Program-made: the position numbers and the translations under genes
Assembly (NCBI GenBank): GCA_008632985.1
Contig: QPGO01000109.1
Location: 124,001 to 188,000, forward strand
DNA: 64,000 bases
Reading direction: 5' to 3'
Origin: Psammoneis japonica
Taxonomy: Eukaryota
Notes under the pieces: generated by a model
Told to the model about the DNA's origin: nothing
What the model saw: only the letters and a program-made list of their open reading frames with translations
Databases searched by the model: none
Part shown: positions 1 through 64,000 of the stretch, piece by piece
How the letters are laid out: each line of letters begins with the position of its first letter
Position numbering within the stretch: position 1 is the stretch's first letter

Positions 1-18
1 TGCGGACTTGCTGTCTCA

Positions 19-1133
19 ATGACAATGGTGGAATGTGTGAACATCGGAAGGCACATGGTGTTGAGAAGAAGATTGAAGTTCAGAGGGTCTGTCAATCGCT
101 GCAACACAGGCAGGCTGAATCTAACAGAAGTCGCTCGGGTTTGCAGGGTTGACCACAAATTTGCAGTCAAAGTGGAGCGAGAACTTGACTGTTGCGGCCA
201 AGTGCTTCACCCGAAAAAGATTCACCAGAAACAATTGCATGGTCCAGGCATCAACAAAATTGACAGTCTAGATGCTTTTGTCCTTCTGCTGATTCCATGT
301 CTGGACAAGCCAAGTTGCTCGCTGTCCAACTGTCAGGAGAAAATCTGCACAACCTCACAGGAGCAGTGGCTTCAAACACTGCCATCAGTGGATTCTGGAA
401 TCATGCATTTCCAATCAGCGGGAAACTTTGCAAGCCAAATCTCATTCCCTGTGACAAATTCAAGCCTGAAAACATCCTTCAAGTGTGTGAGTTCACAATG
501 GTTGTTGCCAAGGTTGATCTGTGGAGGGTCAAATGCAGAGATGAGAAGCTGCTGAAAGGTTCAGAAGTGCATTGCCGAAGGACAAGGCGAAATGTGCCAA
601 TGGGGGAAGTCCCGCCATCCTTCACATCCTCTGATTTTCGCAGCACACACCCCATCATTGGCTTTTGCGGTGTCGACACAAGGACCCACCCAGTGCATTG
701 CCGGATCCATGATGAGCTGAATGATGCAGGACAGTTTGCAATGGAGATTGAGCACGCAGTGTGTTGGGGCCTTCTCAGAGGCGGTGACATCCTTGTTCCA
801 GATGATGCAGCCTGCCATGTGCATGGTGAAAATGCAGTTCTTGAAGAATGGCTGTGGATGGAGCATGGCATCTTTGTTTTGTTTCTTCCAATGAAGACCC
901 CTGGATGGAACCCTGCAGAACTTGTGTGGCATCAACTTGTGACACAGCTCAAGCACCATCCAATCTGCAGGCTCCGCTCACACACCGAGCACTCCACCAC
1001 CTGTGCTGCCCATGACGTGTTGTCCCAAATCATGCATGACCAAGTCTTCCACATGCACAGAGCATGTGGACATGCATCTCAAGCTTGTTCCATGATAGAA
1101 TGCTCCACCATGGAATGCCCTGCAACAGACTGA
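19..1133 (+). pseudogene. Tc1/IS630-like (DDE_3-type) transposase remnant, frameshifted near 300, TpA-hypermutated
   Basis: Motifs GDILVPDDAACH (second Asp) and FLPMKTPGWNPAELVW (FLP-x-SPELNPIE-like); N-terminal HTH-like segment in another frame; no Tyr, excess Cys/His. Confidence 0.75.
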
Positions 1134-2039
1134 GATGCAATTGAAACTTCCAGGCCCTGGGCACATGACACAGAGTCATTCTGTGCCAGGAAACACTTTC
1201 GTTTTCCCACAAAAAATGTCTCTAAAAATTGACACTGCTTTGCCGTTGCGAGATTGGATCCATTCAATTCAAATTGTTGATCCAAAAAATGCTGCAGTTA
1301 GACTTTCACCCTGGCGAGAGCCACAAAATGCACAAAATGTGAGCATTGTTGGTTTTCCATCCTTTAAAACAATGTCTTGCAAGAACAGAACAGGCATGCA
1401 TTGTTCATGGTGCCAGGTGTTTGAACACGAAACTGGCTTTACATGCGGAGCACCTTTGTCGCACGAGAAAGCACAAGGGGTGGTGCAATTTTTAGTGACA
1501 GCTCTGCAACTGATGGAGTTGGGCCCAGATTGAGACACCTGAACAGTGCAATGGTGACAAGATGCAAACACAGTCACCAGCACAGACAGTCTTCATTGAT
1601 TTCAAAAGCATCAAGTGGATTCACACAGGAGTTTCAACGTCTGCAGAAATTTGCATTCAAACATCCATGCCTTTGCATCCAACAGAAACATTGTTGGAAG
1701 CAACATCCTTGTAGACTTGCATGCTTTCAGACTCATTGGACAATGAGAAGGATGGTGCAGTCAATGCCGGACGATTCTTTGGAGGACCAGGGAAGGAACA
1801 TGACCCCATGCGATTTTGAAAAGAATTCTCCTTGCCGTCAGGATGGGTGTTCTCCTTCTCCTGCATGCCATTTTCATCAGAATGCACGGGCTCTTCATCA
1901 TGTCCTCCATCATGTCCATGGGAGCTGCGATGATCATGGGAGGAGGAGCTGGGAGGTTGGTGTTGGTTGCAGTGGCAATTGTCTTTGCAGCCACTGGAAG
2001 CAGTGACATGGCACCTCTCTTCTTGATCACCCATGCTGC

Positions 2040-2400
2040 AGCAAGACTGACTTTGATGCTGGCAAGAGACACTGTCAGAGCGACTGTGCTCCCTGTCACT
2101 GGTGCGAGTGCTCTCACCGCGAGAGCAACTGCACTCCCTGTCACTGGTGCGAGTGCTCTCACCGCGGTGAGAGACACTGCAAGAACAACTGTGCTCCCTC
2201 TCACTGGAGCCATTGCTCTCACCGCGGCAAGAGACACTGTGATGGTGGCAAGAGCAAGAGCGACTGGGAGAGCAACTGCGACAGTGGCAAGAGCAAGAGT
2301 GATTGCGGCAGCAATGGGAATCACTGTGGTCACTCTCACTGTCACTGGAGCTTGGACTGTGGCAAGAGTGGCTGCAGCCTCCACTCCCATGTCCTCTTGA
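2040..2400. repeat. Degenerate tandem repeat (units of about 39-51 bp); minus frame resembles a decayed Arg/Ser-rich low-complexity coding repeat
   Basis: Recurring ctccctgtcactggtgcgagtgctctcaccgcg and gcaagagcaagag units; minus translation RGESTRTSDRE repeated among SCSC/SHS runs. Confidence 0.7.
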
Positions 2401-3748
2401 GTGACCACAGCCACTGCTGCTGTGACGTCGATTGAGGGAACAACCACGATGCCTTGTTTGTTCTTGGTGACAGGAATCATCAGACTGCCTCTGACCATGT
2501 GCCACTGGACACCCAGAGCCAAGCTTTTTGAGGAAGAAAAGAAAAGGCCAGTGAGTGGAGTCAAAGAAATCAAAAAGAAATGAAAGACATGAAAGATGCA
2601 CGTGAGTGCAGCAAAGCAATGATTTGATGCTCATGACAAACTGCCCATTTGAAGCATGCAGTGATTGCATGCATTCTTTCTTTGCACCCAAAGCATTCTT
2701 CTTCTCCTGCTTTTTCAAATCAACTTTTGTTCACTCCTTCACCCTGAATTCTTCAAACACAAAGAAGCAGACCATTCAAATGATCCCAGGAAGGTGGGCT
2801 TTTGAGAAAACAAAAAGCTCAAAGACTTGCAATCCCACTGCAAAATTGCAAAAGTGGCAGCAGCAAGAACAGCAAGTCTGGCAACACCCAAAATGGAAAG
2901 ACTGCAAAACAGAACAGCCCAGGCATGAGAGCAAAGGAAACTTGGAGGATGTTGAAGCTGCAAATCTTGTTGCAAAGTCCTTGTCACACTTGGGCAAGAG
3001 TGGTTTTTGGGATTCAGTGTGCTGTGGTGAGAAAAATGAAGAGAGTCAAAGCAAGTTGATGAAGACAAGCAGCTGGAAGCCAATGCCTGCAAAGGCCACG
3101 GGGCAAGCACCAGCAGCACCAGCAAGAAGAAGCTGAGTGGCGAGGCAGGGCACCAGAAGAAAGCAAAAAAAGTGGGTTGATCATGCAGCATGAAAGGAAG
3201 GAGCAAGATTTGAGGCAGGGCTGAGACGGGAGACTCAGAGGTTTAGAAGCCATAAAAAAGAAGCACCTTGTTGTCAAAAAACAGAAGCTGCGGACACAAT
3301 GCACTTAGATTTCAGAGAGAGCGGCAACTGAGGCAAGGGCTGCTGCTGGGCAACTGGCAAGCACCTTGAAGCAGAGCGCTTTGCCAATGTCAAATTCAGC
3401 ACAGAACAGGTTGTCGTCAAAACCCATGTTGACTCACCCCGCTCTCCAGCTCGTGTCCATTCATCATTCCTTGCAAGTTGAGAATGGATGACAAAGTGGC
3501 ATTTCCATGTTGATGGAATGTGTCGCATTCAGAGATGAACGATGCGATGATTCATTTGCACAAGAAAATGTGTCCACAGTAACGACAATGACGCATCTAG
3601 AGAGACATTGCTGGCATCGTCGATTCTACAGTAAGCAGGCCTTGGCAAAATTCCCTGACGCAGGCCGCCAGGCCGCCATTAAGAAACAAAGCGCATGAAC
3701 TCATGATTTCGTGACACAAGGCCCAATCCAACTAGAAATTACAACTGT

Positions 3749-5820
3749 TTAGATGCAACACTCGGCAGCATGCTCTTCTTGGAATCGTAGACAGTCAAAG
3801 GTTGCCATGTCTGTCAATAAATCAACGTTTGCTTTGAATTCGACCTAACGGAGGCAACGACAACATAACAATGATGAGATTCAAGCGCCACAAAACAAAG
3901 CAAAATGGCAAGCGAGTCACTCACATGAATGCATGTAGTCTCCATACTTAACAGGGAAGAATTCACCATTCGGTCGGGCTTTGGCAACATAGTGTCACCA
4001 CCACATATGCGACAAAATGGTTGTGGATTCTCAGTCTTGGGACATGCACAGTAAGCTCCCACAGACTGCCACGCGGTACAGTCTGTAGCAAAACGAGGAT
4101 CCGAATCCATCAACCCGTAGGCCATTCCGCTTATATCCTCACAAGAGACACTGGGAAGAATCTCCTTACTCATGTTTTGAGCAGGAAGCAACGAGACGTT
4201 ACCATCTTCCTGGGGACAAATCCGACAAAAGCTACCGCCCGAGGACGGACAGTTGCAGACGGTTTCTCCTTGATAACCCGCGGTCAAACAATCGCTCTTG
4301 GTGGAATCCGTCTGTGCAATGCGGTCTTGAGCAACACCACAAGTCACATTTTCTCCATCCTCTGAAACTTTTACAAGTACGTCTTGAAAGTCAATGTCCA
4401 CAAGTGAGCCATCGGGGCAGAGTGTGTCACAGAAATTCTGACACCCACAAAAGAATGCATGTTTCTGGATTTCTTCCTTGCATTGCGTCGAATTGTATGC
4501 AAAACCTGAATTCTCCAAATCACCACAGGTAACAAATTCCTCTTGAAAAGGTATTTCAAGTTCCGGCTTTGTAACGGGTGTCCCGTCAGGACAAACGGTG
4601 CAGTTGCCTCGAGAAGTGTTACCAATTGGAGGAGATGGAACAGGTGCGGTTGTTTCTTGTCGATCGTCGATTGGTGAAACGATATCAAACCGGGTCTCGC
4701 TGTTTGAACTGAATGGAAATACTCGTCTGATGCGATTTTCTGCAATGCTCGTGTCGCTTCCCATGTAAATTTCGTAAAAGCCTCCTGGGAGACCATCCCC
4801 TCCAAGATCGACAAGAGAAAAGACACAGCAACTCCCACTCACTTGAGTGGTAGATTCCACTCGAAAGCTCGGGATCAAGTTGTCTGTTCCGATTGGCAAG
4901 AAAGAATAGGTTCCCTGAGGTACATTCAGAACTGTGTCTTGTTGACAATCCCGTCGTGGGCCGCACGCCAAGGTCCATCCCGTTTCACCAGGATTTTCCA
5001 CCAACTCAATTACCAAGGACACTGTGGACAAAATGGTGGGCGCTGGAGTAGAGGTAGGAGACGCCGTTTCTTCGGGTGGAGGGTCGCTATTGCTGTCGCC
5101 ACCGCCCAACAAAACACCCAGCGTCGTTCCTACAGCACCAGCCACCACGAGGAAAGCCAAAACCAAAACAGGAGTACGTCTGAACCACGGTTTTTCTTTG
5201 ACGGCTTCGGCTTGCACAGCCAGTGGTCGATCGCCATCCTCGTCGCTGGTATGCGAGTCTGTGACCGATTCGGGATCGTCTTCGTCGGCCAAATAGGCTT
5301 GTACTGCAGGAGAAGTATCGGTTGTACTTGTTGCAGACGTCACGGCACTACTCCTCGTGGTTTCCTGATCAGCACAAGAGGCCCCAATTCCCGCTACAGA
5401 AACAGCGCCAGGCAGAGTAGATTCGACTCCCTGGACCCTGGATGACGACGTGTTGTCCACTCCTGATGTTGTTTCATGATTATATGGAGAGATTTCCTCG
5501 TTATTAGTGTCAGCGTTCAGCGAGTGTGTCGTTGCAGTAGCAGCAGTGGCGGCGTAGGGTGGCGTTGCCTCTGCATTACTATATTTATTATTTGCCTTGG
5601 CCTGGGCATCCAAATACTCCTGAGAATAAGCTGCCCGTGCTACATCGGCCATATCAGTAGTTCGGCCTTCATCACCAACATTGGACCGACGAGAGGTTAT
5701 GGAAGCCGCTGTAGTTGCTGATGCTGTCTCGCCGCGGCCTCCCTCTCGTGTCGGCGCTTGAAGAAATGTCATTTCCTCCTCACCATCGTCCTTGGGGCGC
5801 CCCGAGCGTTTACTCTCCAT
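3749..5820 (-). CDS. Single-pass membrane protein with Cys-rich extracellular repeats; exons 5820-3925 and 3844-3749
   Basis: Long ORF with normal Tyr content, TM helix VLVLAFLVVAGAVGTTLGVLL, CxxCP...TC repeats; GTGAGT donor at 3924 after TCIH, TAG acceptor, last exon VEFKAN...AECCI-stop matches the paralog. Confidence 0.85.
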
Positions 5821-6317
5821 GGTCGACAAACCCAAATCAATGATATTTTGGCTCACTTTCAACTTGAACTTCCCTCCACGCAGCGACCTGACGTCACTAT
5901 TGAAGAAATTTCCTCCGTGCAGAGATGCACTGCTTTTTCATTGCTACGTCATCAATATGTTATTAATACATTAAGGTACATATACTCTTTACTTCATATT
6001 GATGTAACAGGTATGTTCTTCAGTTCTGAATAATTATGAAGCGATATATATCAGGTAGAGCTCTACTACCGGTATGGTAGTACTGTAGAATAATACTGCC
6101 AGAAGCACTAAGCGTTTTCATGTGTATCTCTCGTGCATGCTGCAGAAACATTCCGCGCGGAACGTTCGCCGCCGTTGGCACATGATAAAACGGCCGCAGA
6201 CCTTACGAAGAAATTGCCATTTGCCATGAACAATTCCAGAGAAAGAGGCAACAAAAAGAAGGAACAAGAGGAAACACTCAAGGGCTTATTACAGACACAG
6301 TTCATTCGTCTTTTACA

Positions 6318-8761
6318 ATGAAAATCAGATACCACGACAAGGTCTGCGTTTGCAATCTCGGTGCAGAATGCAAGGGGATTGCATCCGCTTTCTACTTACT
6401 TGAAGATGCTCGTGGTGGTCATACCAAGATACCTCCGCACGTGTACAATGCCAAAACGCCTCAAGACATTTGCAGCAATCAGTGGAGGGAGCTATTGATT
6501 GAATATGTCAACTCGGAGGACTTTGGCCCCAAGACTCGGTTCGACGAAAACCATGATGCTTCTTCTGTTTACATTGCCAATCATCACTTTCACCCGCAAG
6601 TGGTGGAGGCTGCAGCCGTCAAGACAAGCCCGGGAGCGACCTTCAAGATGCCCATGACGATTCCCATGAACGAAGCGGAACGCTTGGGGTTGAAAGACAT
6701 ACATGTGATGTGTGACAAAGACGGTCAGCCGACGGATCGTGTCTTTGTGCTTCCAAACTACAACTTTGCCAACGTCAAGCAGGACATCAAGAGAACTTCT
6801 CACCTGAATGTTGTCGCCAAGAATTACCAGTTGGTGGAGCTCCAAGATTCAGAGGAAAAGAGTGCAAAAGCTGGGAGCCGTGTCCGTGCCGCTGTGCCCG
6901 GCGCCGTTATGGTTTCGGGAACTGCAGCCGCAGCTGCGGCTGCCTCGGCGACGACGGACCGTGGTACGGAGAATGGTATGCGTTATCAAGAAAAAGACGT
7001 TCTTAGACACGGTCAATTCAGTTCTTTCCACAAGACAGAAAGCACCCAAAGCATCTCCTCTTTTTCAAAGTCAAAGGACGACGGCGACAAGAAAAAGATT
7101 GACATGGAACAATTCGAGTCTTCTAGCCCTGAAGGCGACGAAGGATTGGTCCATGCAGCCATGGTGACGGACGGAGCGAGGAGCAGGGTCAAGAACAAAG
7201 ACGTAGAAAAGGGAGAGCTGGGTGAGAAGAAAGAATTGGCTACCGCTCATGCCAAAGAAGTCAAGCCATGGTATAAACGCAGAAAGGTTGTTGCGGGACT
7301 CATTCTATCGGCATGCGTCATTATTGGCGTTGCGGTAGGCGTCTCTGTGGGCCTGTCAAACAAGGATAATAGTAATCAAGAACCCTCCGCCACCATATCC
7401 ATGTCGGACATAACTCTGGTGATGCTCGTGGATTACCAGCCGGAGCAGGTAGGATGGAAACTGGAGTGCGACAACCAAGTCATCCATGATATTCCCACCG
7501 GAACGTATGGATTACTAGGATATGGGGTATCTGGCGTTGGATCAAGGCGTCGGCTTCATCGTCACGGAGGTAGGTTGATTGACACGTTTCGCGTGGAATA
7601 CACTACTCAGGTTCCATACAACAGCACTTGTGTCTTCAACATAACCGATTCCGGCGGGGACGGTTTGATTGGTGGCTTTTATGAAATCTACTACGGAAAC
7701 GACGTTGCAGACCCCAAAAGCCTCATGAAACAAGTTTCTTTTGAGGGTTACTACGATATCTCTCAGTTTCAAGCCATTTCACCAAAGGCAGAGGATGGTT
7801 CCTCCTCACCACCACAGAAATCGCTCACGTCGCCGTTTGCAAAACATGTGGATGATAAAGAGCATTGCAGCATTTGTCCTGGCGGTGAGCCCGTCCCGGA
7901 CAAGTCGGAGGAGCTCGATGGCAACCGAACGTGCGGCCAAGTGGAAGACTTGCTTGCTGACTTGTTTTCGAACTGCCCACTCAATCATGATTTAATCCAT
8001 GAATGCGGCTGTAACAATCAGTGTGACAAACTCTGTCGTGACGGTTCGACTGTCCCGCGAGACTCTGAGGACAACTTGGTCAAGGTCGAGAATGGTTATC
8101 GTGTTACGTGTAAAATGGCTCAAGATAAGGTAGAGCGGACGATTTCAAGACAGAGTGACTGTTTGAGGAGCAGCTATATTGGAGAGACGTTTTGTGGTTG
8201 TCCCAAGGAGGTGAGCTTATGAATTTGCAAACAATTCTTCGCAGGTGTTTGTGTCCTCGTTGAGCTTACGTACGCTTCTTCTCGTGTTGAATTGAAATTT
8301 GCAGAGGGAGTTTTGTCACGTTTGTCCGGACAATGAATCGCCAACGGACCTGACGCGTGAACTCGTTCCGGGGGTCACGTGTGAAGGTCTCAGTGGCATT
8401 GGCTACTCTTTGCCAAGATCAGATGAACGGTATGCGCCCATTTGCCCAGCTTGTCAGGGATTAGGAGCTTATTGCGGATGTCCCCAAGAGCAGAGTACAG
8501 AATCATACTGCCGTCTTTGTGGAGATAGTCTCCTGCCTGAGCTTGGTCGAATTGTCTTCTTCCCCTTGCTGAACATAACTACGACATGTATCCATGTAAG
8601 TTATTATGGTCAGTTGTGTTGTGTACTGAGGCAGTTTCTTGTCGTGTCTCAACTGCTTCTTTTCTTCTTGTTAGGTTGAATTCCAAGCAAACGTAAACTC
8701 TACGGAAGTTCCGGGGTGTGCCGCATTTCAAGAAGATTTTGGTGCTCACTGCTGTGCGTAG
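6318..8761 (+). CDS. Paralogous single-pass membrane protein with Cys-rich repeats; exons 6318-8210, 8305-8595, 8675-8761 (start uncertain)
   Basis: KPWYKRRK then a TM helix; shares FRVE-TTQV, D-GGDGL-GGFYEIY-G-D and GET-C-CP with the 3749-5820 gene; phase-0 GT-AG introns 8211-8304 and 8596-8674; ends VEFQAN...AHCCA-TAG. Confidence 0.85.
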
Positions 8762-9451
8762 AAATGCACGTTTCAAACCATGGGCAATTGAACGTTGATG
8801 GGGTTACTTTGTGTTTGATTATGTTTTGTTGATGTCACATTTGCAGTTTTTGTAGTTGCACCGGAAATAATTTTTTAGAGGAAATTGACACTGCATGACA
8901 TCGATTGTGGCATTGTTGTTGTGTCAACAAGATAATCGGCCACTACGTCACCAAACTGATGATGATTCATTTGTTTTATTGCTTCAAAGAACAAGGAGGG
9001 AGGGACAACAATCCTTTTGCCACTTTAAGCTGGCACCACCAGATCCGGACGGTGACGTCGTGTTCAAATTTCAGTGAAGGAATGGGGTGTGCCTCCAATC
9101 TATGGCATGTCTTCATGAGGGGGGCACTGCATTCCCTCAGAACTGTCATTGCAAATGCAAGCAAATGAGGTTCCTTGGCCAAAACAGACTCCATTGCTGT
9201 GAAGGCAAGATTGAGATCCATGCCGCAGTGGATGGCAAGCCATGAGGCTGCAGTCAAGACAAGTGCACCCACCATTGACACCAACAACAAATGCCTGTAG
9301 ATGGCCACCTGTCACCCCACAAAAACACTGCAAAGTTCACATCCACTTGGCTGCTTAAAGCAGAGAGGGGGGGGGGGGGGGGTTGGTGCATTCAGGAAAA
9401 CATTGTGGCATGAGTCTTTCTTCTGTGAGCATAGCAGAACAAACAAGGGGA

Positions 9452-9848
9452 GACGCGTTCCAGCCCTAGGTGGGAGCTCGTAGTACTGACGTGTGACACA
9501 AATAATTTTTATCATCCGTCGTATGTTTCGTACGTAGCTTTCTACGTGTGATATTAAAAAAAAAATTGTCCAGACTCGCTGTTTTGCGAAGCCCCAGACG
9601 TTTTATATAACGATTTTATAGAAACAATAATGCGCCAGTTACATTCTTCAATGTCTGAAGAATGTAACTGGCTAAGTAAAAAATGATGTACTTCAATCAT
9701 GGGCGAGTTTGTGCGTTCGCAAAATTGCCTCATTTTCTGTTGGCGATCATTGACATTTTAATTACCGTATGATTTTACTACAGAGCTCGCACGTAGAAGT
9801 CTACGGGCCCAATGTCACACGGATTCCCACCTACGTCTGGAACGCGTC
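9452..9848. mobile_element. Young MITE of the GAC-TIR family, 23-bp imperfect TIRs, 4-bp TSD GGGA
   Basis: ggga|GACGCGTTCCAGCCCTAGGTGGG ... CCCACCTACGTCTGGAACGCGTC|ggga; interior rich in TpA and CpG. Confidence 0.85.
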
Positions 9849-34965: not shown

Positions 34966-34984
34966 GCAAAGCATCCAACTCTGC

Positions 34985-44148: not shown

Positions 44149-44249
44149 TGGAGCGGGCATGTTTGCAGCAAGAGCTGCTGTTTTGGTGTTTGAAGTGCTG
44201 TTGCTCTGTTCCACCTCATTCATTGCCAAAAAGAGTGAAGCACATTGTG

Positions 44250-47782: not shown

Positions 47783-47884
47783 NNNNNNNNNNNNNNNNNN
47801 NNNNNNNNNNNNNNNNNNNNNNNNNNNNNNNNNNNNNNNNNNNNNNNNNNNNNNNNNNNNNNNNNNNNNNNNNNNNNNNNNNNN
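47783..47884. other. Assembly gap (N run)
   Basis: Run of N. Confidence 0.99.
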
Positions 47885-47889
47885 CAGCA

Positions 47890-51800: not shown

Positions 51801-54800
51801 TCAGGCAAATGTCTCCCACAACGACACTGAGGGAGACGGGCCACACGACCGGCATGACCCAGATGTCCACCCGGATTGTGCCGAGCGGAAACGGGTGCAT
51901 GCACTGTCAACCTCGAGTCGTGCATCAACACCATCACGCCCGAGACACTCTCTAAAAGGTGGAGCATTGGCCTGACGGCCGCTGAGAACACCCTCAGAGT
52001 GACGACCCAGGCAGGGGTCCGCAATGTCCACACACCATCCAAATGGAAAGTCCGGAAGAAAGCCCCTTGGCTTAAGTTCCCTGCTGTCAAGGGATGACTC
52101 TACTCCAACCAGATGTTTTCGAAGGTCAAATCGACACATGGCGAGATGGGAGGAAGTGCACTTGCCAACGGAAGGGGGTGTGATGGGTTCTGTCCTTGGA
52201 AGAGGAAACAGGACCACTCAGACGCCGTCATGTCATTCACACATGACGTTGGTGCACCGCAGGTCCTTGTGTCGGATGGCACGCAGGAAATGGCGGAAGG
52301 CCAGACCAAGGAGATCTGCAAGGAATGCAGGACACACCAGGAGGTGTCCACCCCATGCAGCCCCTGGCAGAACCCAGCCGAGGCATCCATTCGTGAGTTG
52401 AAGAAAAGAGTCCGTGTGACTCTACGCCGGACTGGCGCTCACAGGCGACTTTGGTCCCACAGCGCCAAATGGACATGTGACATCCAACGCATGATTGCGA
52501 CCAGCATGTTGGACATGGGAGGACGAGTCCCAGAAGAGGAGGTGACAGGTTCGACACCCGACATCTCTTCCCTCTCTCTCTTTGATTGGCATCAACCTGT
52601 GCATTGCTGTGTGCCTGTGGCGGAGTTCCCACACGAAAAGAAGTGCATTGGCCGTTGGCTTGGAGTGGCTGACAACTGCACTGATGATGTGGCATTCATT
52701 GTTTTGCCCGAATCAGGCAAACCCATTGTTCGGAAGGATGTGTGGGCCATGCCGGAGGATGACCTTAAAACTCCGGTGATCCAGATGGATCTTGCATTGG
52801 TCGATCAAGCTTTGATCGAACAGCTTGGCATCCCAGAAAAGGATGCCAGTGCTGACTTCCCTGAACTCCCTGACAACTTCATGGACGAATGGGATGATGC
52901 CGTTGAACCCGTGGAACCCGACTCTTCCAAACCGGAAGCTGATGAGTCTGCCCCGGAAGGGCCAGATGAATGTCTCACAGCTCAAGTCATGTCACCACGA
53001 GGAGGCAAGCTGACTCATGCTAGGGTCATTGCACGCAAGCGAGACAGCGACGGGGTTCCCATTGGTGCCAGGAACGACAACCCTGTCCTGGACTCGAGGA
53101 TGTGCGACATGGAATTCCCTGATGGATCCACTGATTCCTGTGCTGCTGGCGCAATTGCAGAGAACCCATTCGCTCAGATCGACTCTGAAGGGAATGCCTG
53201 CCAGATCATGAAGGAAACAGTCGATCACCGACGTGATGCCCATGCCGCAACGGCCGATGACGGGTGCATGACGACTGAGACTGGCAGGCATGCTCCTGGG
53301 AGGATGACCACAGGCTGGGACCTGCAAGTTGAATGGAAGGATGGGACCACATCCTGGGTTCCTCTCAAGGATTTGAAGGAGTCCAATCCAGTCAAGGTTG
53401 CTGAGTGCGCTGCAGCGAACAAAGTGGCTGGTGAACCAGCCTTCAACTGGTGGGTCCGAGACGTCTTGCGTCGCAGGTCAAGGATCCTGAAGAAAGTCAA
53501 GTCGCATCACTGGAAACACACGCACAAGTTCGGAATTGAACTCCTGAAATCTGTTGAGGAAGCCATGGAAATGGATGACAGAACGGGGACCGACTTCTGG
53601 TTCAAGGCTGTCGAGAAGGAAATGCGTGACGTCATGCCTGCGTTCGAATTCCGTGATGACGACACTGCACCGGTCGGGTGCAAACACATTGATTGTCACA
53701 TGATCTTTGACATCAAGAGCACCCTCCAACGTAAAGCGAGCTTCGTGGCGGAGGCCATCAAACCAATCCACCTGAGGAATCGACACATTCCAGCGTGGTG
53801 TCGCGTGACAGCGTTAGGATGGCATTCACTGTGGCAGCTCTGAATGACCTGGAGGTCCTGAGCACTGACGTTCAGAATGCCCACTTGAACGCACACACTG
53901 AGGAAAAGTGTTGCACCGCTGCTGGCCTGGAATTTGGGAAGCAGAACAAAGGAAGGCCGGTGATCATTGTCTGTGCCTTGCATGGTCTCAAGTCTTCAGG
54001 TGCAAGATTTAGGGAACATGTGGCAGCTGCTCTGCGGGACGCTGGGCTCGAATCTTGCAAGGCTGACCCGGATGTCTGGATGCGGGCTGCGGTCAAGCCG
54101 GATGGCTTCAAGTGCTGGGAATGTGCACTTGTTTATGTGGACGACTTGTTGTGCGTCTCCCATGAACCTCAGAAGGTCATGGATTGTATGAGCTCTAGGC
54201 ACACGCTCAAGGACGGAAGCGTCTGCGAACCGGAAGAGCACTTGGGCACCCAGATCAGAAAGTGCCAGCTGTCTGACTCGGATGGTGAGACACGCTGGGC
54301 CATGTCCTCTGACCTTCATGTCAAAAGAGCATCAGCTGACGTTGAATTGGAGCTTGAGAAAACTGACAGGCATCTTCCGACGAAGGCATTGAAGCCTTTG
54401 AGCTCGGGACACAGGCCTGAACTGGACAGCTCACCTGAGTTGAATGCCAAAACGGCTAACCACCATCAAGGCCTTGTTGGTGTGCTGCGGTGGGCAGTTG
54501 AACTGGGGTGAGTGGACATTTTTGTCGCTGTCTTGCTCATGTCCTCCTGCTTGGCAGCACCATGAGTTGGACACCTGGACGAGGTGCTCCACATCTTTGC
54601 ACACTTGAAGGCTCACTCTAAGTCTGCGCCAGTGTTCAATGACTCTGAGCCCGTCTTTGACGAGAGTCGCTTTGCCAAGTGTGACTGGGAAGAATGTCAC
54701 CCTGGCACGGCTGAACCAATGCCGCCGAATGTGCCGGAGGCACGCGGGAACAGCGTGACCACTGCTTGCTTTGTCGACGCTGATCACGCCGGATGTGTGT

Positions 54801-55552
54801 GACGTGCAGGTCCCACACTGGGATCCTGACATTCATCCAACGAGCACCCATCTTGCATTGCTCTAAGCAGCAGAATGCCGTAGAGTCCTCTGCTTTTGGG
54901 TCGGAGTTCGTGGCCATGAAAACTGCAGTGGAGCAAATTGAAGCCTTGCGTTGCAAGCTTCGGATGCTCGGAATCCCCATGGATGGGGCCACCAACGTTT
55001 TCTGCGACAATGAAGCTGTCTTCAAGAACTCAACTAAACCAGAGTCCACTTTGAAGAAGAAGCACAATGCAATTGCCCATCACAGGACTCGTGAGGCACA
55101 AGCCGCTGGAACAGTGCGCATTGCTTGGGAAGACGGACGCATGAATCTGGCGGACGCACTGACTGAGTTGTTGCCTGGACCAAAGCTCGGGAAATCACAA
55201 GTCATGTCCCATGGCAAGTCCCAAAAGGGGACAAACCGAACGGGTTTGCCGCGTGGGTGCGGCTTTTCCCACCCCCAAAATGTGACTGCTGCCCTGGAAT
55301 GGGGCAGCATCAGGTTGCATTTGTCTGTTGATCTGACCCAAGCGGAGCCAGTGTCAGTTCGAGGGGACTGAACAAATGCTGATGTGCTGTCACGAATGTA
55401 GGCAGTTTATGTGCTGTTGGCAATTGGTCCACTGTCACTTGGTCAGTGGCCCCAGCAGCGCAACATCTCACAATTCTAGAACCTGTTGATGCTGTTCAAC
55501 ACTCTGTCTTGTCTTGCACCCAATTCTCAGCCATCATGGCAGCATTTGTTCA
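48855..55552 (+). mobile_element. Full-length Ty1/Copia LTR retrotransposon (diatom CoDi-like), inactivated
   Basis: 184-bp LTRs 48855-49038 and 55369-55552 with TGAACAAATGC...GCATTTGTTCA ends; AAAG on both flanks; tRNA-Met-like PBS remnant tgtcagagcc; PPT gaggggac; gag from 49585; protease LDSHAD, integrase PWQNPAE, RT YVDD, RNase H DADHAG and CDNEAV in Copia order. Confidence 0.95.
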
Positions 55553-57143
55553 AAAGGGTGTCAAGCTTGTGACTGTTCTTCTTCTTTCACCAGCAAATTG
55601 TTCTCTCTGTCTGCTGCAGAAGAGCCAATCTTCAAAGTCAAGCAAGCAAATCTCACTGCAGCACCGGCACCACACAAAGAAATGTTTCTCCACAAGAATC
55701 TCTTTCACACAATTGATTGTGGCTCTTCTGTTCTTTTCAATGATGCCACAGAGCAACATGACAAAAAGCACAAATGCACATGCATGAGACATCATTTGAA
55801 TGGCGACAACAGGCAAAGTGACACCCGTCAGTCGCTGCTTTTTGGGACACAACAAAATGGTGACTGTGGCAGATGACAGAGCTGTTGTGCACGGGCACCA
55901 ATTTCTTGCCGATTTGCTGCCAGACCGCCAATTTCCAGACACCTTGTTGACCATGTTCCTGCGCGTGTGTGTGTGACAATTGGAAGTGACATCACATCGT
56001 TGCTGACGCTTGCATTTTCATTTTGACCATGCGCCGTGCATTGTCGAATTGTTGTTCACGCTGTGTGCACCAATGTCTTCACCAGACACCAATGATTCCA
56101 ACAATGAGAAGCTGTTCTCAGGCAGCCTTGACAGTGCTTGTCAGATGAATGCATTGGCTCCAACTCCTGCCAACAACGGCGATGCTGCTGGCATCATGGT
56201 GGATCTGGTGTTGCTCTTGTGGCAGAGGGACGTGGTGGTGAGCAACGAGGTTGGAAGAGCTTCAAGCCCATGGTCTTGCAAGCCACTTGCAAGGACTCCG
56301 TCACCAAAACTGATCATGTCACGTTGCTCATTGTGGCTTCATCTGGTGTGTTTGCACCACGGACCTTTCTGGCTTCCAGCTGTCTGTTGTGGGCAATGGA
56401 ACGATGCTCAGCTGCATCTCCCAATGGCCTCAGAACTCCATGGACATGGATGCTCTTCATGCAGTTCTCCTTTCTGAAGCTTCTGCCAAAGGGGGTGGCC
56501 ATGGTGGCAATGATGAACTGTGTGACATGTGCAAGCGTCTTGAAGCTCTTTCAGATGAGATGGCTTCAATGGGGCAGTCTGACTCTGAGGTCCTGTCTTC
56601 CACGGCCATCACTCCCTTGTCAATCCAGGTCTCTAGGAAAATTGACAAGGTCCATTTGTTGGGTGGGCGCGATGGGTCCAGGGTCATTCATGTGGACCTC
56701 AAGTCGGAAGATTCGACATGTTGTGCTGTGGAGAATCCAGCAGTTAAGTTGATTGATGCTGTGGGTGACAGTGTTGGACTCATTGACAACAATTAGGAGC
56801 GTCAATGTTGGCGGATGGGATGCGCGCACATTTGACTCAACACGCAGATTGGGGTTTGGGATTGTCAGCAACTGATTGGCATGAGAAAATGCTGCTTTAG
56901 ACAACAGTCTCAGCACAACTGGTTGTTTGTGTGAAACACACAACTCAGCTCAATCTTGGGCTTGCGCTTTGTGGCAAGCAGGCTGGCACAGCAACATGCA
57001 GTCATTGTCTGCTCATGTTTTTATAAAAAAAACCACAAAATGACACAAGACCTGCACAGCTGGACAATTGCCATGATCCACCTCATCGTTTTGTCATTTG
57101 TGCATGCGCTTGGTGTGTGAGTGCACGTGTGCAAATGACAACA

Positions 57144-57911
57144 GATGTGCTCCAGCTCTGGGTGGGACCTTGCGCTGTGGCTGGAGTTCATTTTTTGAAA
57201 TTTGGAGTGGATTTCTGCTCAAGTGGTGCAACACGTCACCAAGTTGAAGCTCATTTCATTGGAAGGAAAACAAAAAGCACGAGAATTGTCACGTGCCCGG
57301 TGTCTCAACGATGATGCTCACAGCTTCTTGAAAATCTTTGGCTTTTTGACGTGTTCCAGCCGCATGTGAACCAAATCGTGCACAAAAACAACATTTGCGT
57401 GATTTTTGCGTGGTCCCTTGACGATCAAACTTTCGCCACCAAAAGCATGGAATTTGCAAATGCAAATGTTTTTCAACACTGACAAGACTCGTGTGAGTGT
57501 TGCAATGTCATTGTCATTGTGCCAGGGGCCCCACGGGTGTGTTTTACATTGCGTTAAAAGATTTGTAACACAACGGATGATTTTCGGCGAAAATGTTGCT
57601 GTCATTTTGATGTTGCCTAAATGTGTCTTTCTACGATCATGCTTGGCAGGTTTTCTACCTGCAAAGAAATCTCGGTGTAAATTCACTGATGCACAATGTC
57701 TCCATTGAGTCCACTGAGGAAGTCCACAACACATGTCCCATGAGGATTTGAGTGACCCTCAAAAAACTGTTTAAGTGTTCATGCTCTAGAAGCCCACAAA
57801 AGTCAATCCGTCCAAGCATTTGTTGTCAAAATGCTTCACACACTATAAGATGCACAAATCATGTTCAAAATGGACTGTCGTTTTGTGCGTCACCTGGGAC
57901 TGGAACACGTC
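57144..57911. mobile_element. Possible divergent GAC-TIR family copy
   Basis: gatgtgctccagctctgggtggg at 57144 and cacctgggactggaacacgtc ending 57911, but flanks (aaca/tttt) give no TSD. Confidence 0.45.
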
Positions 57912-58199
57912 TTTTGCACTGCGACCTGTGCCCACCTCACCAAGTCACCTGCAAAGCTCCATGAGGGATGAAGTGCAAAGACCCATCATGTCTGAAACCC
58001 GAAATCATTTGCATCAAAACACATGCATCAACTGTTCCTGGATTCTTGCGTTTGGAATCAATGGATGCCAGCGGACCTGTGGGCAGAGCACTGCAACACA
58101 AAGTTCAACATCGTTGATGAGGGAGTCCAAATCATGGGTGAAGAGTTGAAGAAGCAGCATGGCAGCATCAACAGGGTTTCAAATTTGATGGCAGAGAAC

Positions 58200-61100
58200 A
58201 ACGTTGTTGCCGATGTCAGTCAGCAGACAAATCTTGGCTCACTCACAGGCACTGCTCAACCAAGACATCCCCAATCATGAACTGGCCAAAAGGTTAGATC
58301 AAGACATGTTGCAGTTCTCCTTGGCTGCTGCCAAGAAGTGTCAGATTCACCGAGAGCCAGAGTGGTTGGTTGAACTGTCACAACTGCGGCAAGTTGAAGT
58401 CATGGAAGGAAACTGCCTCCATGCTCATAAAGTCAGGATTGCACCTCGGTCATTGGAAAGCCATGCATGCTTCCCATGCTCATTCTTGTGCCAAGACAAA
58501 GGATGGAGATCCGACGGAGGCCCACATTTGCCTGGACAATGTGCAGCAGACCTTGGTGCAAATCCAGCTCAATCTGCTCAATTGCGCCTTGTGCTGGGGA
58601 TGCTCGTGCAACTGATGGAGGGACATTGTAAACGTGATGACATTCAAGGAAGCCGGCAACAACAAGATCCATCGTTTGTGCATCATTCATGTCTGCGAGG
58701 CAGATTTCCAACTTGTCTCAAGTGTCCTGTGGCGTTCATTGGCTCAGAACATGGAGCACCAAAAATTGCACAACCCAGGCATTTGTGGCACGCGTCCTTT
58801 CCTGCACGCCAATGTCCCAGCATGTTTGGAAGAATTGATGTTGGAAATCAGCAGGGTGTCTCAGAAAACAGCTGTCCACAGCAACGGTGACTGCACCTCC
58901 TGTTGCGACAGGAACATTCCTGCTCTTGCAGTGCTTGAAAGTCACAACAATGGCGTGCCCAAGACCGTGACAAATTTCTGCAACATCTGCCCTCCTACAA
59001 GCTCGGTGCTGGCTAAAAACAGCCATCGGATTGTCTCCCACCTCATGTTCCCACACTTTGGACTTTCCCATCTACGGCACAGGACAAGGCAGTGGCAACT
59101 CTCCACCATGCTGGAACCAGGTGTGTGACAGTTTGTTTGATCTCTTTGACCAAAATGCTCACGGAGCCTTCTTCGAGTCCCCTGATCATTCAGTGTCACT
59201 CAAGATCCACAACCAAGGACACGCAGATGACACGTCCAAGCAGGTGAACGACTTTGCTGCATCCCCTCAGTTTGGTGTGACCTGCTGAACGCAGCAGGAC
59301 ACGAGCTGGAACTTCCAAAGTGCTCCTTTCATGTCATCGAATGGAACTTTGTGGAGGATGGCGAACCATGCCTCCATGCATGCAATGATGACATTGTTGT
59401 TGACATCTCCTCTGCAGACAGGTCAGACAGCAGGCCCAGCACTCAACCATTGCCTTGCTCCTCCCACAAGACTTTGGGCCACCACAAAGCCCCGGCTGGA
59501 TCGCAAAAGATGCACCACAAGGCCTTGAAGAAGAAGAGTGATGTTAGATTGTCATGAAGCATGGACCCATTGCTTCACCTGCCACTTGGCAGCAATGACT
59601 CACACCCTTCCGAACACCCATTTTCTCCCCAAGGAACTGACAGAGATCCAGAGGAAGGCCATGCGCACGATCTTTGCGAAATGTGGACACAATCACAACA
59701 TGAAACGAGATTTCTCATTTGGCCCATGTTCCCTCGGTGGCGGAGGTTTCTGGTCCTTGGATGTCGAACAAGGAGTCAGCCAAGTCATGCAGTTCATGTC
59801 TCACTGGAGAGGTGTCAGCCAGCCACATGCCCTTTCATGGATTGCAGCATCTTGGGTTCAGTTTCATCTGGGCACCGGCACAAGCTTCTTGAAGGATGTG
59901 CACTCCCATCTGCCACATTCTGAGTCAAAATGGCTCTTCTCACTTAGACCCTTCCTCTCCCGCATCAACGCTTCCTTCGACCCAGACAAACCTGGAGTCC
60001 TTCCGCTTCAATGTGACAATGATCAACATCTCATGGATGTGGCACTTGACTCGGGACTTTTCTCTGACAAAGAAGTCAGGTGGGTCAACTGTTGTTGCCT
60101 GTTTCTCAATGTCCTCACAGTTTCAGATGTCACCTTGCCCAACGGCAGAGCACTTGACAAGCACAAGTTCCACGCACACACCTCAGTTCTCAGCAGCATT
60201 TCGACATTGCACCAAGTTGAACAGGCCGCCCATCTGCCAGAGCATGGAAACAATTGCAACGTGCCTGCAGGTTGTTGTGCAAGAATGACAATTTAGAACT
60301 TTGAGCCCCCCCCCCCCCCTTGGCTCTTGGGCAATTCCAGCAATGGAGATGCGCGCGACCTTTCCAGCACACTGCAAACCCAACAAAGATCATTTGTGTG
60401 TCAAGTTGGACACAGGTTTTCAGGTTTTCCCCGTGTCTCATGGCTCTGCTCAATCCATCAATCCTCTCAAGGTTGCACCTGATCTGTCTCCACGGGCTTC
60501 TCCAGTGATGGCAGATTCTGTCAGAGATGGCTGGTGGTGCATTGGACACAGGCTCTTCATTTGACCTGCCTCCCACAGTGCCAGTTCCTTCAGACTTTCA
60601 AGCTTGGTTGTCATCATCACCGCAATGGAAGTCATTCCTCTTTGCCGATGTTCGCCTGCATGTGTCCGTCTTTGAGATTGCACACTGCTTGCAGATGTGC
60701 CAATCAACAGCTGGCAGCGATGGGTCTGTCATCGGAAATGCAGCAACATTCGGCTGGACTCTCGCCATCAATGGTGCGGCACTGGCCGACTGTGCTGGTC
60801 CAGTGCTTGGATTTCACCCAACTTCTCACAGAGTGGAAGCATGCAGAGTGCTGTCCTGTCTGAGATTCTTGACTCAGGTGATGGAATGTTGTTTTGCAAG
60901 CTGCCCTCTGGGAAGTGACCCATGCTGCGATGGCTTGGCTGTCATTTGCCGTGTGTCAAAGTTTGAGGCACCGATGTCAAGCTCCCCTGCTCAGGAATCC
61001 GACTCCGTGCTGCACGGCTTTCACCGCAGAAGTCACACAGCAAACACAACATCCGCCAACTGCTGGGATGTCATTGATGAAATTTGCTCATCAACGGAAG

Positions 61101-62190
61101 AGATGTCTGCATCATCCACGGAGAACACTCCATGCATTCTGTCTCTGTCCAGTGGATTCTTAAAGGACACCAGGATTCTGCTGCTCCACATGAGATGCTT
61201 TCTCCACCTGCCAAAGTGAACGTCTGCACTGACAAGATTGCCGGTCAATGTCACAGAAAGTTCCAGGGCGACACCCTGCACGCGCCGCAGATGCCTCATT
61301 GTTCTGCAAATCTGGTCCTCAACAATTCCACAGTGGGGTCCAAGTTTAAGCAGGTCATGCGATGCGCAGCGTCTTGCCCAGCACTTGTTCAATGCATGAA
61401 AGAGAAACATTCTTGGACAGAAGATGCACTTCAGTCCATGGGTTGGGCTTCTCACTCCAAACTCATGTCTGTGTGGTCAAATTGGTTCAAGATTTGCTGC
61501 CCACAAACAAGACAGTGCATCGGTGCAACCCAAATCGCCCAGACACTTGTGTGCATTGCTCGCACCCAATGGAGGATCGGGGCCACATTTTAAAATGTCC
61601 TCATGACAAGTCATGGCGCCGCACCTTCTTCCTTCAAGGCCTGTGCAAGAAATGTGATGACATCTGCACTTCCCCTCCCATGCATGATCTTCTCTTGGAA
61701 GCCCTTGAAGCTTGGTTTGCAATCAAACGGCATTTCCGGAGGACTTGCACCTCAGTGTTGTGTCAGCATTCTACTCCCAGGATCTGATGGGATGGAGGCA
61801 AATTTTCAATGGCAGATTTGCCGTCCAATGGAGTGCAGTTCAAGCTTCGCACCTCAGGAACACAGAACTTCCTTCTGATGTGGCAGAGAATGTCCGGAGA
61901 TTGGATTGGTTGGCTGCTGCAGGAAGTTTCATTTGGTCTCAATGGTGGGAACCATGGGATCAACATGACAACGCAGTGCAGGGTCACGATGCAGAGATGA
62001 GGAAATCAGCCCAACGGAGAGATGCAGAGGCGGAAGTCAAGGTCATTTGCTCCAGATCAAGTGAACATCTTGCAAAGGACAGGTCCACCTTGTTTGACTC
62101 GGTGGAAGAACACTTGACTCATTCTGCTTGCAGATTGCAAAATTAGTTGGAAATGGTGAGACCCATGTTTAAATCCAGCATTGAGGAGGC
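58200..62190 (+). mobile_element. Non-LTR (LINE) retrotransposon remnant with RT, RNase H and a C-terminal CCHC motif
   Basis: RLCIIHVCEADF, DCTSCCDR (CYDR), GTGQGSGNSP, GHADDT, LELPKC, GP.SLGG.G; RNase H SDGS...E...CD...KGHQD...N..D..A; CVHC....EDRGHILKC. Confidence 0.85.
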
Positions 62191-62429
62191 GAAGTGGCTT
62201 GAAGTGAGGGGCACTCTTGCTGTTGCTGGTTGCTTTGGTGTGGTTGGGTTTTGTTTTTGACGGAGCAAATTTGTGCAAAATGGAACACTTGTGTGGCCTC
62301 GAGAAGGGCAGAAAACGATCACGTCACATGTTTCTTCTCATCACCGTTGAAAAGCCACCATCAAAACCTTTGTCCACCAGCAACTGGCAATGAATCTGCA
62401 GAGGTGTGGCTTTGTGAAGTGGAGCCGTC

Positions 62430-64000
62430 AAGATGAAATTTGGAAGAACGCCACTTGATTGCACTGAAATGCCTCCCAAATTTTCCGACACCAATCCAGA
62501 CATGCTCAACAGTGACAAAGCACAACAAGCAAGGAAGAAGCAACGTTTTTCTGAAGAAAAAGAGAATGATGGGATGTCAATTGAAGAGTTGGATTCAATC
62601 AGGCAACAAATTGCACCTCGGTTTGTCCACTTGGATTCAACTCGAGCCGCAATGTTTTTGCTCCAACCTTGGTTTACCCCAATGACATTGATGCAAAGAC
62701 AGTTGTGCAAGATTGCATTGACATTTTGTCTGCTGTTGTCAATCATCCACGTGGCCACAAGACAGTGTTGCCTGACCAGGATGACAAGAATCTAGCTGCC
62801 AACTGTGAAAAGGCATCCATTGGGCATCGTGCACTTTGCATCATGGCAGCACTTCAGGCCACACTCAACAACCTCAAGGGGGAAGGAAAAGAGATTGAGG
62901 GTGATGTGACTTGGGGTGAGTGCTGTGGGTGTGCTGTGAAAAGGCCAGAGGAGGATGGCATTGCTGCCATTGGCATTTGGCGCAAGCGGGAGACCACTTT
63001 TCTCAAAACACCAAATGAGGCAAACCTGCACTCCCACCTTTTTTAGCAGCAATCCTGAAGTCAAGAATGCATTTGTTTGGCGCGCAATGCACAATCTGAA
63101 AGATCTTTCAATTGAGTTGATGCACAAGCACCTTTGCCAGAAGACAATTCCTGCGCTGCTGCTGAGCGCAAAGAATGATGTTGTGGTGGAAGATGATGAC
63201 GAATTTGAGCAAACCATTGAATCCACTGGTGAATCTCATTTGCTGACTGAAGATGAGGAAGATGCCAGAAGTTCATTTCTGAAAACGTTTGGACCAAGGA
63301 CATTTTCTATTTTGACAGTGTTGCGGTGGATGCATCTTCTTGGATTCAAGCATGCTCACAGGCTGAAAAGCTTTTGTGTTGATGGTCACAAGAAGCCCGC
63401 CATGAAGGCGCATTGAAAACAATTCACCAGATGATGCCTTGAGTTGGAGACGAGGTGCTGCAGGTGGGTGCAAATTCCACTGGAAGAAGCGACAGAGCTC
63501 ATGAATGCAGGCTTGGTTCCAAATCTTGGTCAGGACTCTCTCTTTGCTCGAGATGGAAATGTGTGTGTTGAGTTCCATGTGGACGACTGTGGCAGCTTTC
63601 ATGACATGATCACTCAATCCGCCGACCCGAAAGTGTGGGAATGTGTTGGATGTCCAAGCCACCAGTTTCCTGCCAGTGCAAAGCCAGCTGTGTTGTGGGG
63701 GCAAGATGAGGCCATTTTCAAACAGCTTCCATTGAACAACAAGGCCCCATGGTGAGACAGCACTGGTTCCGAAAGATGAGGGCCTTGGAACAATGCCCTC
63801 TCTTTTTGTGTGTTGGGAGTTTGGCCCAGTGCAAAGTCTTGATGATGATTTGCTCAAGAAAGTGAATGACAAAAGGAGCAGAGCTGTGTGCTGAGATGAA
63901 GCAGCAGCAACCGAAGCACAAGGGTCCAATTCCAAGAAAGATGTGAAGACGTTGCTGCTTGTCTGCGAATTTGAGTGTGGGCAGAACAATGAGGGACACT
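62430..64000 (+). pseudogene. Tc1/mariner-related DDE transposase remnant, cut by the window end
   Basis: RWMHLLGFK....KSFCVDGH (YVDGH), WGQDEAIFKQ, PKDEG.G.M motifs. Confidence 0.65.

Follow-up and report, generated by a model that had tools for sequence, protein, structure and literature searches.

The stretch analysed here, hereafter the window, comprises 64,000 nt of the diatom Psammoneis japonica (assembly GCA_008632985.1, contig QPGO01000109.1, positions 124,001 to 188,000) and contains two gene islands set among transposon-rich domains in which the dinucleotide TpA has nearly disappeared. Our analysis indicates that TpA in these domains has been converted into TpG or CpA, in mobile elements of unrelated classes and in one host-type gene copy. 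The domains and the affected or spared elements on which this rests are as follows (TA, CG, TG and CA values are observed/expected ratios, o/e; LTR, long terminal repeat; MITE, miniature inverted-repeat transposable element; ORF, open reading frame):

1..3573: TA-poor domain 1; 12 TA against 235 expected, o/e 0.051; CG 0.31, TG 1.79, CA 1.66
264..1130 (+): hypermutated remnant of a Tc1-like DDE_3 transposase (DNA transposon; Pfam DDE_3, E=5.8e-07)
3580..8979: gene island 1, unaffected, internal control; TA o/e 0.547, CG 0.91
8980..9445: TA-poor stretch opening domain 2; 5 TA against 28 expected, o/e 0.18; CG 0.17
9446..9848: young, unmutated MITE copy of 403 bp, with 24-bp terminal inverted repeats of 92% identity
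9849..19101: TA-poor domain 2; 37 TA against 584 expected, o/e 0.063
15893..16755: old fragments of the MITE family, with TA turned into TG or CA (two alignments against the young copy)
19107..26648: gene island 2, unaffected, internal control; TA o/e 0.559, CG 0.97
26672..64000: TA-poor domain 3; 157 TA against 2322 expected, o/e 0.068
32122..32793 (-): copy of the host-type gene TVP23/DUF846, a hypermutated pseudogene (Pfam DUF846, E=9.6e-33)
44070-44155 and 45975-46350: further fragments of the same MITE family
48855..55552 (+): Copia LTR retrotransposon of 6698 bp, hypermutated after insertion
48855..49038 (+): 5' LTR of Copia (TG...CA), matching 55369-55552 without gaps over 184 bp at 88% identity
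53735-54508: RVT_2 ORF of Copia (Pfam)
55369..55552 (+): 3' LTR of Copia, with 22 differences from the 5' LTR

Over all 64,000 nt, o/e was 0.18 for TA, 0.57 for CG, 1.66 for TG and 1.58 for CA. A two-state hidden Markov model on the probability of A after T, P(A|T), separated TA-poor segments (1-3573, 9836-19101, 26672-29301, 29539-57544 and 57851-63990; TA 0.05-0.07, CG 0.31-0.62, TG/CA 1.64-1.82) from TA-normal ones (3580-9832 and 19107-26648; TA 0.55-0.56, CG 0.88-0.97, TG/CA about 1.2). Summed over 50,621 bp of TA-poor DNA (1-3573, 8980-9445, 9849-19101 and 26672-64000), 211 TA were observed against 3169 expected from base composition (o/e 0.067), compared with about 0.55 in both gene islands. 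This bears out an earlier, sequence-only reading of the window, which had described TA as nearly absent outside islands of normal composition and had excepted 9452-9848 from a TA-poor stretch at about 8900-19090; we measured o/e 0.18 over 8980-9445 and 0.89 over 9446-9848. The borders of the domains were abrupt, the last or first TA lying within about 10-25 bp. CpG decay was found inside the same TA-poor domains (CG o/e 0.3-0.6, as compared with 0.9-1.0 in the gene islands). Compared with the islands, the TA-poor domains had lost about 0.5 o/e units of TA and about 0.45 of CG and had gained about 0.45-0.6 each of TG and CA, such that the combined gain of TG and CA approximately equalled the combined loss of TA and CG.

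We aligned four ORFs of the window with their homologues: TVP23 and the Copia reverse transcriptase (RT), each with 120 homologues among the matches listed; the Copia gag-integrase ORF (gag-int), with the 78 of 150 matches that covered at least 60% of the query; and DDE_3, with all 9 homologues. Columns were scored if their occupancy was at least 60% and at least 80% of the homologues agreed, and the non-aligning residues 1-45 of TVP23 were dropped. Conserved Tyr columns were changed in 19 of 20 cases (13 to His, 5 to Cys and 1 to Arg, encoded by CGT; 1 was kept), as compared with 55 of 364 other conserved columns (p = 5.5e-14, Fisher). The changes at the TpA of conserved Tyr codons were exclusively transitions, and double conversions of TA to CG were rare (1/20); over all Tyr sites, CAY was found at 19 and TGY at 10. 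At codon position 2, A>G occurred at 5/20 TpA (Tyr>Cys) but at only 1/32 ApA, 0/10 CpA and 1/42 GpA, and at codon position 1, T>C occurred at 13/20 TpA (Tyr>His) but at 0/20 TpT, 0/13 TpC and 1/22 TpG, so that neither change was raised in the non-TpA contexts tested. The 55 changes in non-Tyr columns comprised 11 of TpA type (for example ATA>ATG/ACA, TTA>TCA, CTA>CCA, GTA>GCA and T|ACN>T|GCN), 14 of CpG type, 8 other transitions, 12 transversions and 10 multi-step changes. Three of the 120 Copia RT homologues, all from public metagenome or genome sources, namely P0220 (6/9), P0141 (5/8) and P0144 (4/10), also carried His or Cys at conserved Tyr columns, and the signature is therefore present in other public sequences.

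The sequence-only reading had argued from short motifs in which Cys or His appeared to stand for Tyr. All of its Copia motifs could be located, and four of them, KCWEC, EHLG, NHHQG and ALHGL in ORF 53735-54508, align to KYWEY, AYLG, NYYQG and ALYGL in the Copia relatives; intact relatives thus carry Tyr rather than already having Cys or His at these positions. The fifth, IAHHR in ORF 54784-55368, lies outside every alignment. Two of the three findings that this reading had named as refuting it, Cys or His in intact relatives and an A>G rate at ApA, CpA or GpA as high as at TpA, were looked for and not found. The Tc1-like class it had named holds through the DDE_3 match at 264-1130, in which all three columns with at least 80% Tyr (3/3) read His; this ORF contains 2 TA and has 9 homologues at 41-61% identity. 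The ORF bearing the proposed Tc1-like motif CVDGH (62940-63413) matched no Pfam family, and the labels piggyBac, Harbinger and LINE could not be confirmed, as the motif ORFs 17023-18060, 34387-34779, 34098-34556, 58616-59125 and 62940-63413 had no Pfam family at E<=0.01. Searches of PDB sequences with 17023-18060 and 59529-60293 returned nothing relevant, and the sole related Pfam match was the weak zf-RVT at 61350-61784.

The Copia element holds 26 TA, a density of 3.9 per kb; 80 metagenomic loci of related Copia elements have 51.8 per kb. In these loci TA o/e ranged from 0.46 to 0.90 (median 0.72), and the loss of TA is therefore not intrinsic to the element family. The GC content of the element was 54%, against a median of 46% in the related loci, as predicted by A:T>G:C conversion. 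The best protein identity of the 80 loci to the window element was 66%, and close nucleotide relatives suited to a 12-class substitution spectrum were not found in the genome contigs or viral contigs scanned. With TA o/e at 0.07 while CG o/e stood at 0.64, TpA loss outruns CpG decay in this element.

The two LTRs of one element are identical at integration. Here they differed at 22 of 184 positions, 19 of which fall at an inferred former TpA; the differences consisted of 8 CA/TG doublets (16 nt), 3 TA/CA, 1 of CpG type and 2 others. Assuming random strand choice, we estimate that about 20 ancestral TpA were present and that about 88% were converted in each LTR, with a per-site rate at TpA about 300 times that of other sites, a figure based on 2 background differences only. 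We also compared eight repeat pairs in TA-poor DNA, drawn from the strongest of 32 self-matches of the window. These pairs had 344 differences, among them 279 transitions, of which 144 belonged to 72 CA/TG doublets; one copy retained TA at 18 sites and CG at 53 sites. A gene-island pair encoding HA domains, kept outside these totals, had 2 doublets in 76 differences, and the differences between its units were not of TpA type. In both the repeat pairs and the LTRs, copies of one family differ in their fixed choice of CA or TG, and the conversion of TpA took place in chromosomal DNA, after insertion. A TpA-specific A:T>G:C process acting on both strands of unrelated mobile elements, as the sequence-only reading had proposed, is thus supported by the Tyr columns (19/20) and the LTR differences (19/22) alike.

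These data also bear on whether any special process is needed. CpG decay acting on elements that were TA-poor from the outset, or RNA editing fixed by reverse transcription, might be thought sufficient, and CpG decay is indeed present and also feeds TG and CA. However, TAY codons cannot derive from CpG, and the relatives have Tyr and normal TA. The decay of methylated CpG as sole cause was rejected on the conversion of TAY to CAY or TGY and on the 18 repeat-pair sites at which TA stands against TG or CA. RNA editing of the ADAR type fixed by retrotransposition was likewise rejected, since both strands were hit, since the affected sequences include a DNA transposon, fragments of MITEs and a pseudogene of host type, and since the LTRs diverged after integration; the sequence-only reading had set aside RNA editing and reverse-transcriptase error on the grounds of both strands and of DNA transposons being hit. 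The Tyr-column specificity, the TA-normal Copia relatives and the LTR pair together refute this explanation, and we regard its probability as negligible.

We asked in addition whether the sequence itself is real, as a modified base in heterochromatic TpA might be misread in a genome that truly has TA. Independently assembled Logan 31-mer contigs of the public sequencing run X1 reproduce 9823-10770, 10772-12151 and 14780-15567; each departs from the window at 3 letters, and their depth of 58-64 equals that of single-copy DNA (about 56-66 in neighbouring DNA). Most TA-poor bins had no coverage in run X2. Misreading is favoured by the fact that X1, the sole read-level check, is probably from the same sample as the assembly, and that some differences between window and contigs are themselves CA/TG doublets, the window reading CA and the contig TG at 10665-10666 (contig depth 58.5), 18228-18229 (depth 202) and 18482-18483 (depth 59.5). 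But a misread base would yield CA or TG according to strand at every site, breaking the 31-mer contigs and halving their depth, whereas the contigs are 0.8-1.4 kb long, stand at full single-copy depth and differ at 3 letters each. The fixed and differing CA/TG choices within one family also speak against it, as do the heritable new mutations of the same type in the alga Bigelowiella natans (bioRxiv 10.64898/2026.01.13.699255). The TA-poor sequence is not an assembly artefact, and misreading as the origin of the pattern is extremely improbable. The raw-read confirmation that the sequence-only reading had called for was accordingly obtained in part, with contigs that agree with the window yet probably share its sample. 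At the three CA/TG sites, two haplotypes may have converted the same ancestral TA to different products, which would imply recent activity; collapsed paralogues are the other possibility.

The extent of conversion depended on the flanking bases. To obtain the surviving fraction, the density of each NTAN tetranucleotide in the TA-poor DNA was set against its density in two references, the gene islands and the 80 Copia loci:

ATAT: 0 (0 sites left)
ATAC/GTAT: 0.005-0.01
GTAC: 0.018
ATAG/CTAT: 0.02-0.03
ATAA/TTAT: 0.05-0.06
GTAA/TTAC: 0.07-0.11
CTAC/GTAG: 0.09-0.11
CTAG: 0.10-0.18
CTAA/TTAG: 0.21-0.42
TTAA: 0.35-0.79

TTAA alone accounted for 49 of 187 remaining TA. An additive rate set by one flank fits 9 of the 10 NTAN classes within about 2-fold (CTAC/GTAG is off by about 2.5-fold), with the flanks ordered A>G>C>>T on the 5' side and mirrored on the 3' side. 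Assigning the flanks to a strand gave conflicting answers, as tetranucleotide gains and Tyr products sorted by preceding base disagree in direction, the Tyr products showing no clear dependence on the preceding base. Strand-coordinated clusters were not detected among the 72 doublets (38 runs against 39.7 expected, z=-0.46, runs test), and a clustering of Tyr products along Copia, counted by hand, was a hint only that the runs test did not support.

The depth of this loss can be set against a model of error-prone repair in methylated heterochromatin, an option that the sequence-only reading had raised, in which frequent T:G mismatches from deamination of 5-methylcytosine would be repaired by patches made by a low-fidelity polymerase of the DNA polymerase eta (Pol eta) type, with misinsertion opposite the T of TpA. 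Such a model would account for the common domains and borders of CpG decay and TpA loss. The signature of Pol eta, the WA motif, however, includes ApA as well as TpA and many transversions, whereas here A>G at ApA was found at 1/32 positions as compared with changes at 19/20 TpA sites, and the TpA changes were transitions only; mutagenesis of the WA-motif type was rejected on these grounds. Rare repair patches could hardly produce a near-total loss in which no ATAT is left, and in the young Copia element TpA o/e (0.07) is far below CpG o/e (0.64). We consider error-prone repair very improbable.

The sequences hit by the process were the Copia element, the Tc1-like DNA transposon, the old MITE fragments and the TVP23 pseudogene. 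TVP23 is a Golgi-membrane gene; the process has also inactivated its host-type copy in the window, which lies inside a TA-poor domain and forms an exception to the targeting of mobile DNA. The copy contains 0 TA; where at least 59% of the 120 homologues among the matches listed have Tyr (six columns), it reads H, R (CGT), C, H, H and H; and all five invariant Tyr are gone, with ANVYGYYKCS reading ANVCGHHKCS. Its N-terminal 45 residues do not align. At coarse scale the TA-poor domains match raised summed contig depth, and the TA-poor DNA also includes stretches at single-copy depth (10432-11719). The spared sequence is the MITE copy at 9446-9848, with 30 TA (o/e 0.89) and CG o/e 1.45; its terminal inverted repeats (GACGCGTTCCAG...) are intact, and the copy has GGGA on either side. 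The summed Logan contig depth of its bin was about 47,000, compared with about 56-66 in single-copy bins, although such depth is not a copy number. It looks like a new copy of a currently very abundant family that has so far escaped hypermutation. That this copy is spared suggests that the process does not act at once and that repetition alone does not provoke it. Immediately before the MITE, at 9361-9383, stands a run of 23 G.

Among known systems, fungal repeat-induced point mutation (RIP), described in Neurospora and other fungi, has the same logic. RIP needs duplicated sequence, takes place before meiosis and relies on RID/DIM-2. As in RIP, the window shows dense, dinucleotide-specific transitions on both strands that arose after insertion and permanently inactivate mobile DNA, with affected and unaffected DNA sharply separated and copies hit independently. 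RIP, however, changes C:G to T:A, mostly at CpA, and creates TpA, which is exactly the reverse of what we observed: RIP leaves TpA in excess and CpA/TpG depleted, whereas here TA stood at 0.05-0.07 and TG/CA at 1.6-1.8. The unmutated copy of an abundant MITE also argues against a simple repeat trigger. The signature thus follows a RIP-like logic with reversed chemistry and is not a member of the RIP family. Decay of methylated CpG likewise yields TpG and CpA in the same domains, but it cannot remove TpA or turn TAY into CAY or TGY, and it was slower here (CG 0.64, TA 0.07). Published work on diatoms describes CpG methylation of transposable elements by DNMT5a, together with RID-related DNMT4 genes of unknown function (PMC9998398).

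To our knowledge, heritable sequence-specific hypermutation of transposons was not known outside fungi before a 2026 preprint on B. natans. In mutation-accumulation lines of this alga, that preprint (Mettrop et al.) places 231 of 302 new mutations in one insert of a nucleocytoplasmic large DNA virus (NCLDV) and one virophage insert, of which 230/231 were A>G or T>C, all on TpA according to the authors, at a rate of about 6e-7 and with mutations in 11/15 lines; TpA-poor coding sequences were enriched in DDE and RT domains, and an ADAT2 candidate was proposed (bioRxiv 10.64898/2026.01.13.699255). The statement of the sequence-only reading that no described system matches the pattern is accordingly outdated. 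Both cases, as far as the preprint describes its own, consist almost only of A:T>G:C transitions, occur only at TpA, yield both products and are restricted to DNA that is foreign or mobile, leaving host genes intact (the TVP23 pseudogene being the exception here). The local increase in rate is given as about 1000-fold in the preprint and is about 300-fold here, the latter indirectly and from one LTR pair. In B. natans the process is not constitutive, having struck 11/15 lines, and in the window it has spared the young MITE copy.

The two cases also differ. B. natans is a chlorarachniophyte (Rhizaria) and P. japonica a stramenopile. The main targets in the preprint are the NCLDV and virophage inserts, which are half depleted (Rho TpA 0.45), unlike the ordinary transposons here, hit in domains tens of kb long at o/e 0.05-0.07. 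The overlap with CpG decay, the sharp gene borders and the hierarchy that spares TTAA are unreported in the Results and Discussion of the preprint (bioRxiv 10.64898/2026.01.13.699255), and full-text searches of the literature found no report of TpA hypermutation in diatoms. The window thus provides a second case, far closer to saturation, of what had first been described some months before in another lineage of SAR (stramenopiles, alveolates and Rhizaria). What it adds are ordinary transposons as targets, LTR evidence for change after integration, sharp gene borders, coexistence with CpG decay, the sparing of TTAA and a spared young MITE copy.

Taken together, we consider it probable, at roughly 0.8, that the window records a RIP-like hypermutation of opposite direction, directed at TpA in transposon-rich DNA, with an adenine deaminase as the likeliest agent, and that this is the same phenomenon as in B. 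natans. About 90-95% of TpA is gone, TpA having changed roughly a few hundred times faster than other sites, and coding capacity is destroyed, with every Tyr codon and many Ile, Leu, Val, Thr and Asn codons affected. In the mechanism we propose, an enzyme would be recruited to silenced, cytosine-methylated mobile DNA and would change one base of TpA, giving TpG or CpA through A:T>G:C transitions on either strand. Most likely it would be a DNA adenine deaminase, whose product, hypoxanthine, is read as G when the strand is copied. Such an enzyme would be of the TadA/ADAT type, which in tRNA natively edits an A that likewise follows U. We favour adenine deamination because the changes are pure transitions, because TadA/ADAT enzymes edit at UA and because natural ADAT2/3 can act on adenine in DNA. 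According to the published accounts, TadA-derived editors prefer the motif UACG(A), with A after U (PMC8052359), and a natural ADAT2/3 is able to deaminate DNA adenine (PMC10354150).

Several points weigh against this reading. TpA is its own reverse complement, and an A>G change therefore looks the same in the sequence as a T>C change on the opposite strand. The single natural ADAT2 shown to act on adenine in DNA, BjADAT2, is described as preferring GAA, not TA (PMC10354150). Enzymes of this kind act on single-stranded loops. No deaminase family was found by Pfam among window ORFs of at least 110 aa, in line with the remark of the sequence-only reading that no responsible enzyme is visible. 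An unmutated copy of a high-depth MITE family sits inside a mutated domain, the only read-level confirmation probably shares its sample with the assembly, and the rate estimate rests on the two background differences of one LTR pair. Finally, 'defence' is an interpretation, and a side effect of heterochromatin biochemistry would leave an identical pattern.

The self-complementarity of TpA leaves room for an agent that attacks its thymine, such as an oxidase of the TET/JBP type or another T-modifier that would produce 5-hydroxymethyl- or 5-formyl-uracil in silenced DNA. These bases mispair with G, giving T>C. The results from the conserved columns, the Tyr products and the LTR pair all fit T>C as well as A>G on the palindromic TpA, and neither the products at Tyr sites (CAY 19 versus TGY 10) nor the symmetric flank survival favours one base over the other. 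On the other hand, we know of no such T-modifying enzyme or modified base in diatoms, and oxidised T would be expected to leave some transversions or deletions through its repair, whereas the TpA changes seen were pure transitions. We regard attack on thymine as unlikely, though it is the alternative to adenine deamination that we take most seriously.

If the process is as we propose, the same signature at saturation in a diatom places it in a second, distant lineage of great ecological weight, so that it would not be the curiosity of one alga and would target ordinary transposons rather than viral inserts only. A natural TpA-directed A:T>G:C editor of DNA would probably exist, which would be of interest for base-editing technology, and which enzyme is responsible could be tested by contrasting diatoms that carry the signature with those that lack it. 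More tentatively, diatoms and chlorarachniophytes may share a dedicated DNA adenine deaminase for genome defence, a TpA-erasing mirror image of RIP that is old in SAR; we see this as possible but doubtful. Such a shared enzyme would be recruited to silenced, cytosine-methylated mobile DNA, would prefer ATA/TAT and spare TTAA, and would irreversibly erase every Tyr codon, TAA and TAG; in major marine phytoplankton it would thereby shape how transposons decay, how pseudogenes form and what GC content results.

In such genomes the annotation of transposable elements, dating by LTR divergence and the calling of pseudogenes would be systematically distorted, LTR dating because 19 of 22 LTR differences here stem from the TpA process. 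TAA and TAG were lost from TA-poor DNA, leaving only TGA as stop, and long spurious ORFs are therefore abundant on both strands, so that gene callers as well as annotators of transposable elements would be misled. The window holds 199 listed stop-to-stop ORFs of at least 110 aa, of which 176 were run against Pfam (overlapping ORFs inside gene islands and ORFs crossing N gaps were omitted). In TA-poor DNA the only matches were DDE_3, DUF846/TVP23, RVT_2 and a sub-threshold zf-RVT. The gag-int ORF 52098-53840 (581 aa) had no Pfam match, yet an exhaustive phmmer search aligned it to Copia gag-protease-integrase proteins at E=3e-185; hypermutation hides elements from profile models, and most elements are missed by Pfam. 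Scans of the 64-kb window with Rfam and for tRNA genes gave 0 hits. The proteins of the window also point to a diatom, since their named relatives are diatoms (Pseudo-nitzschia multistriata and Seminavis robusta for TVP23 and Fragilaria crotonensis for the Copia RT) and since one gene island carries a helicase with HA domains.

The remaining features of the window are the following:

3817-5937 (-) and 6189-8219 (+): long ORFs in gene island 1
21344-23044 (+): ORF with a ZGRF1-like N-domain, gene island 2 (Pfam)
23265-25787 (-): helicase with DEAD, Helicase_C and HA domains, gene island 2 (Pfam)
27827-28099 (273 N) and 47783-47884 (102 N): N gaps in TA-poor domain 3
29303-29530 and 57545-57846: small pockets of higher TA in domain 3 (7-10 TA in 228-302 bp)
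61350-61784: weak zf-RVT match, E=8e-4, under the curated cut-off

The two pockets are intermediate in TA and match no repeat elsewhere within the window; their DNA may have been inserted later or converted only in part. The HA-domain helicase family is expanded in diatoms. The helicase of gene island 2 contains five HA domains, and four tandem units of 204 bp at 23400-24206, which match at 93%, encode its repeated HA domains.

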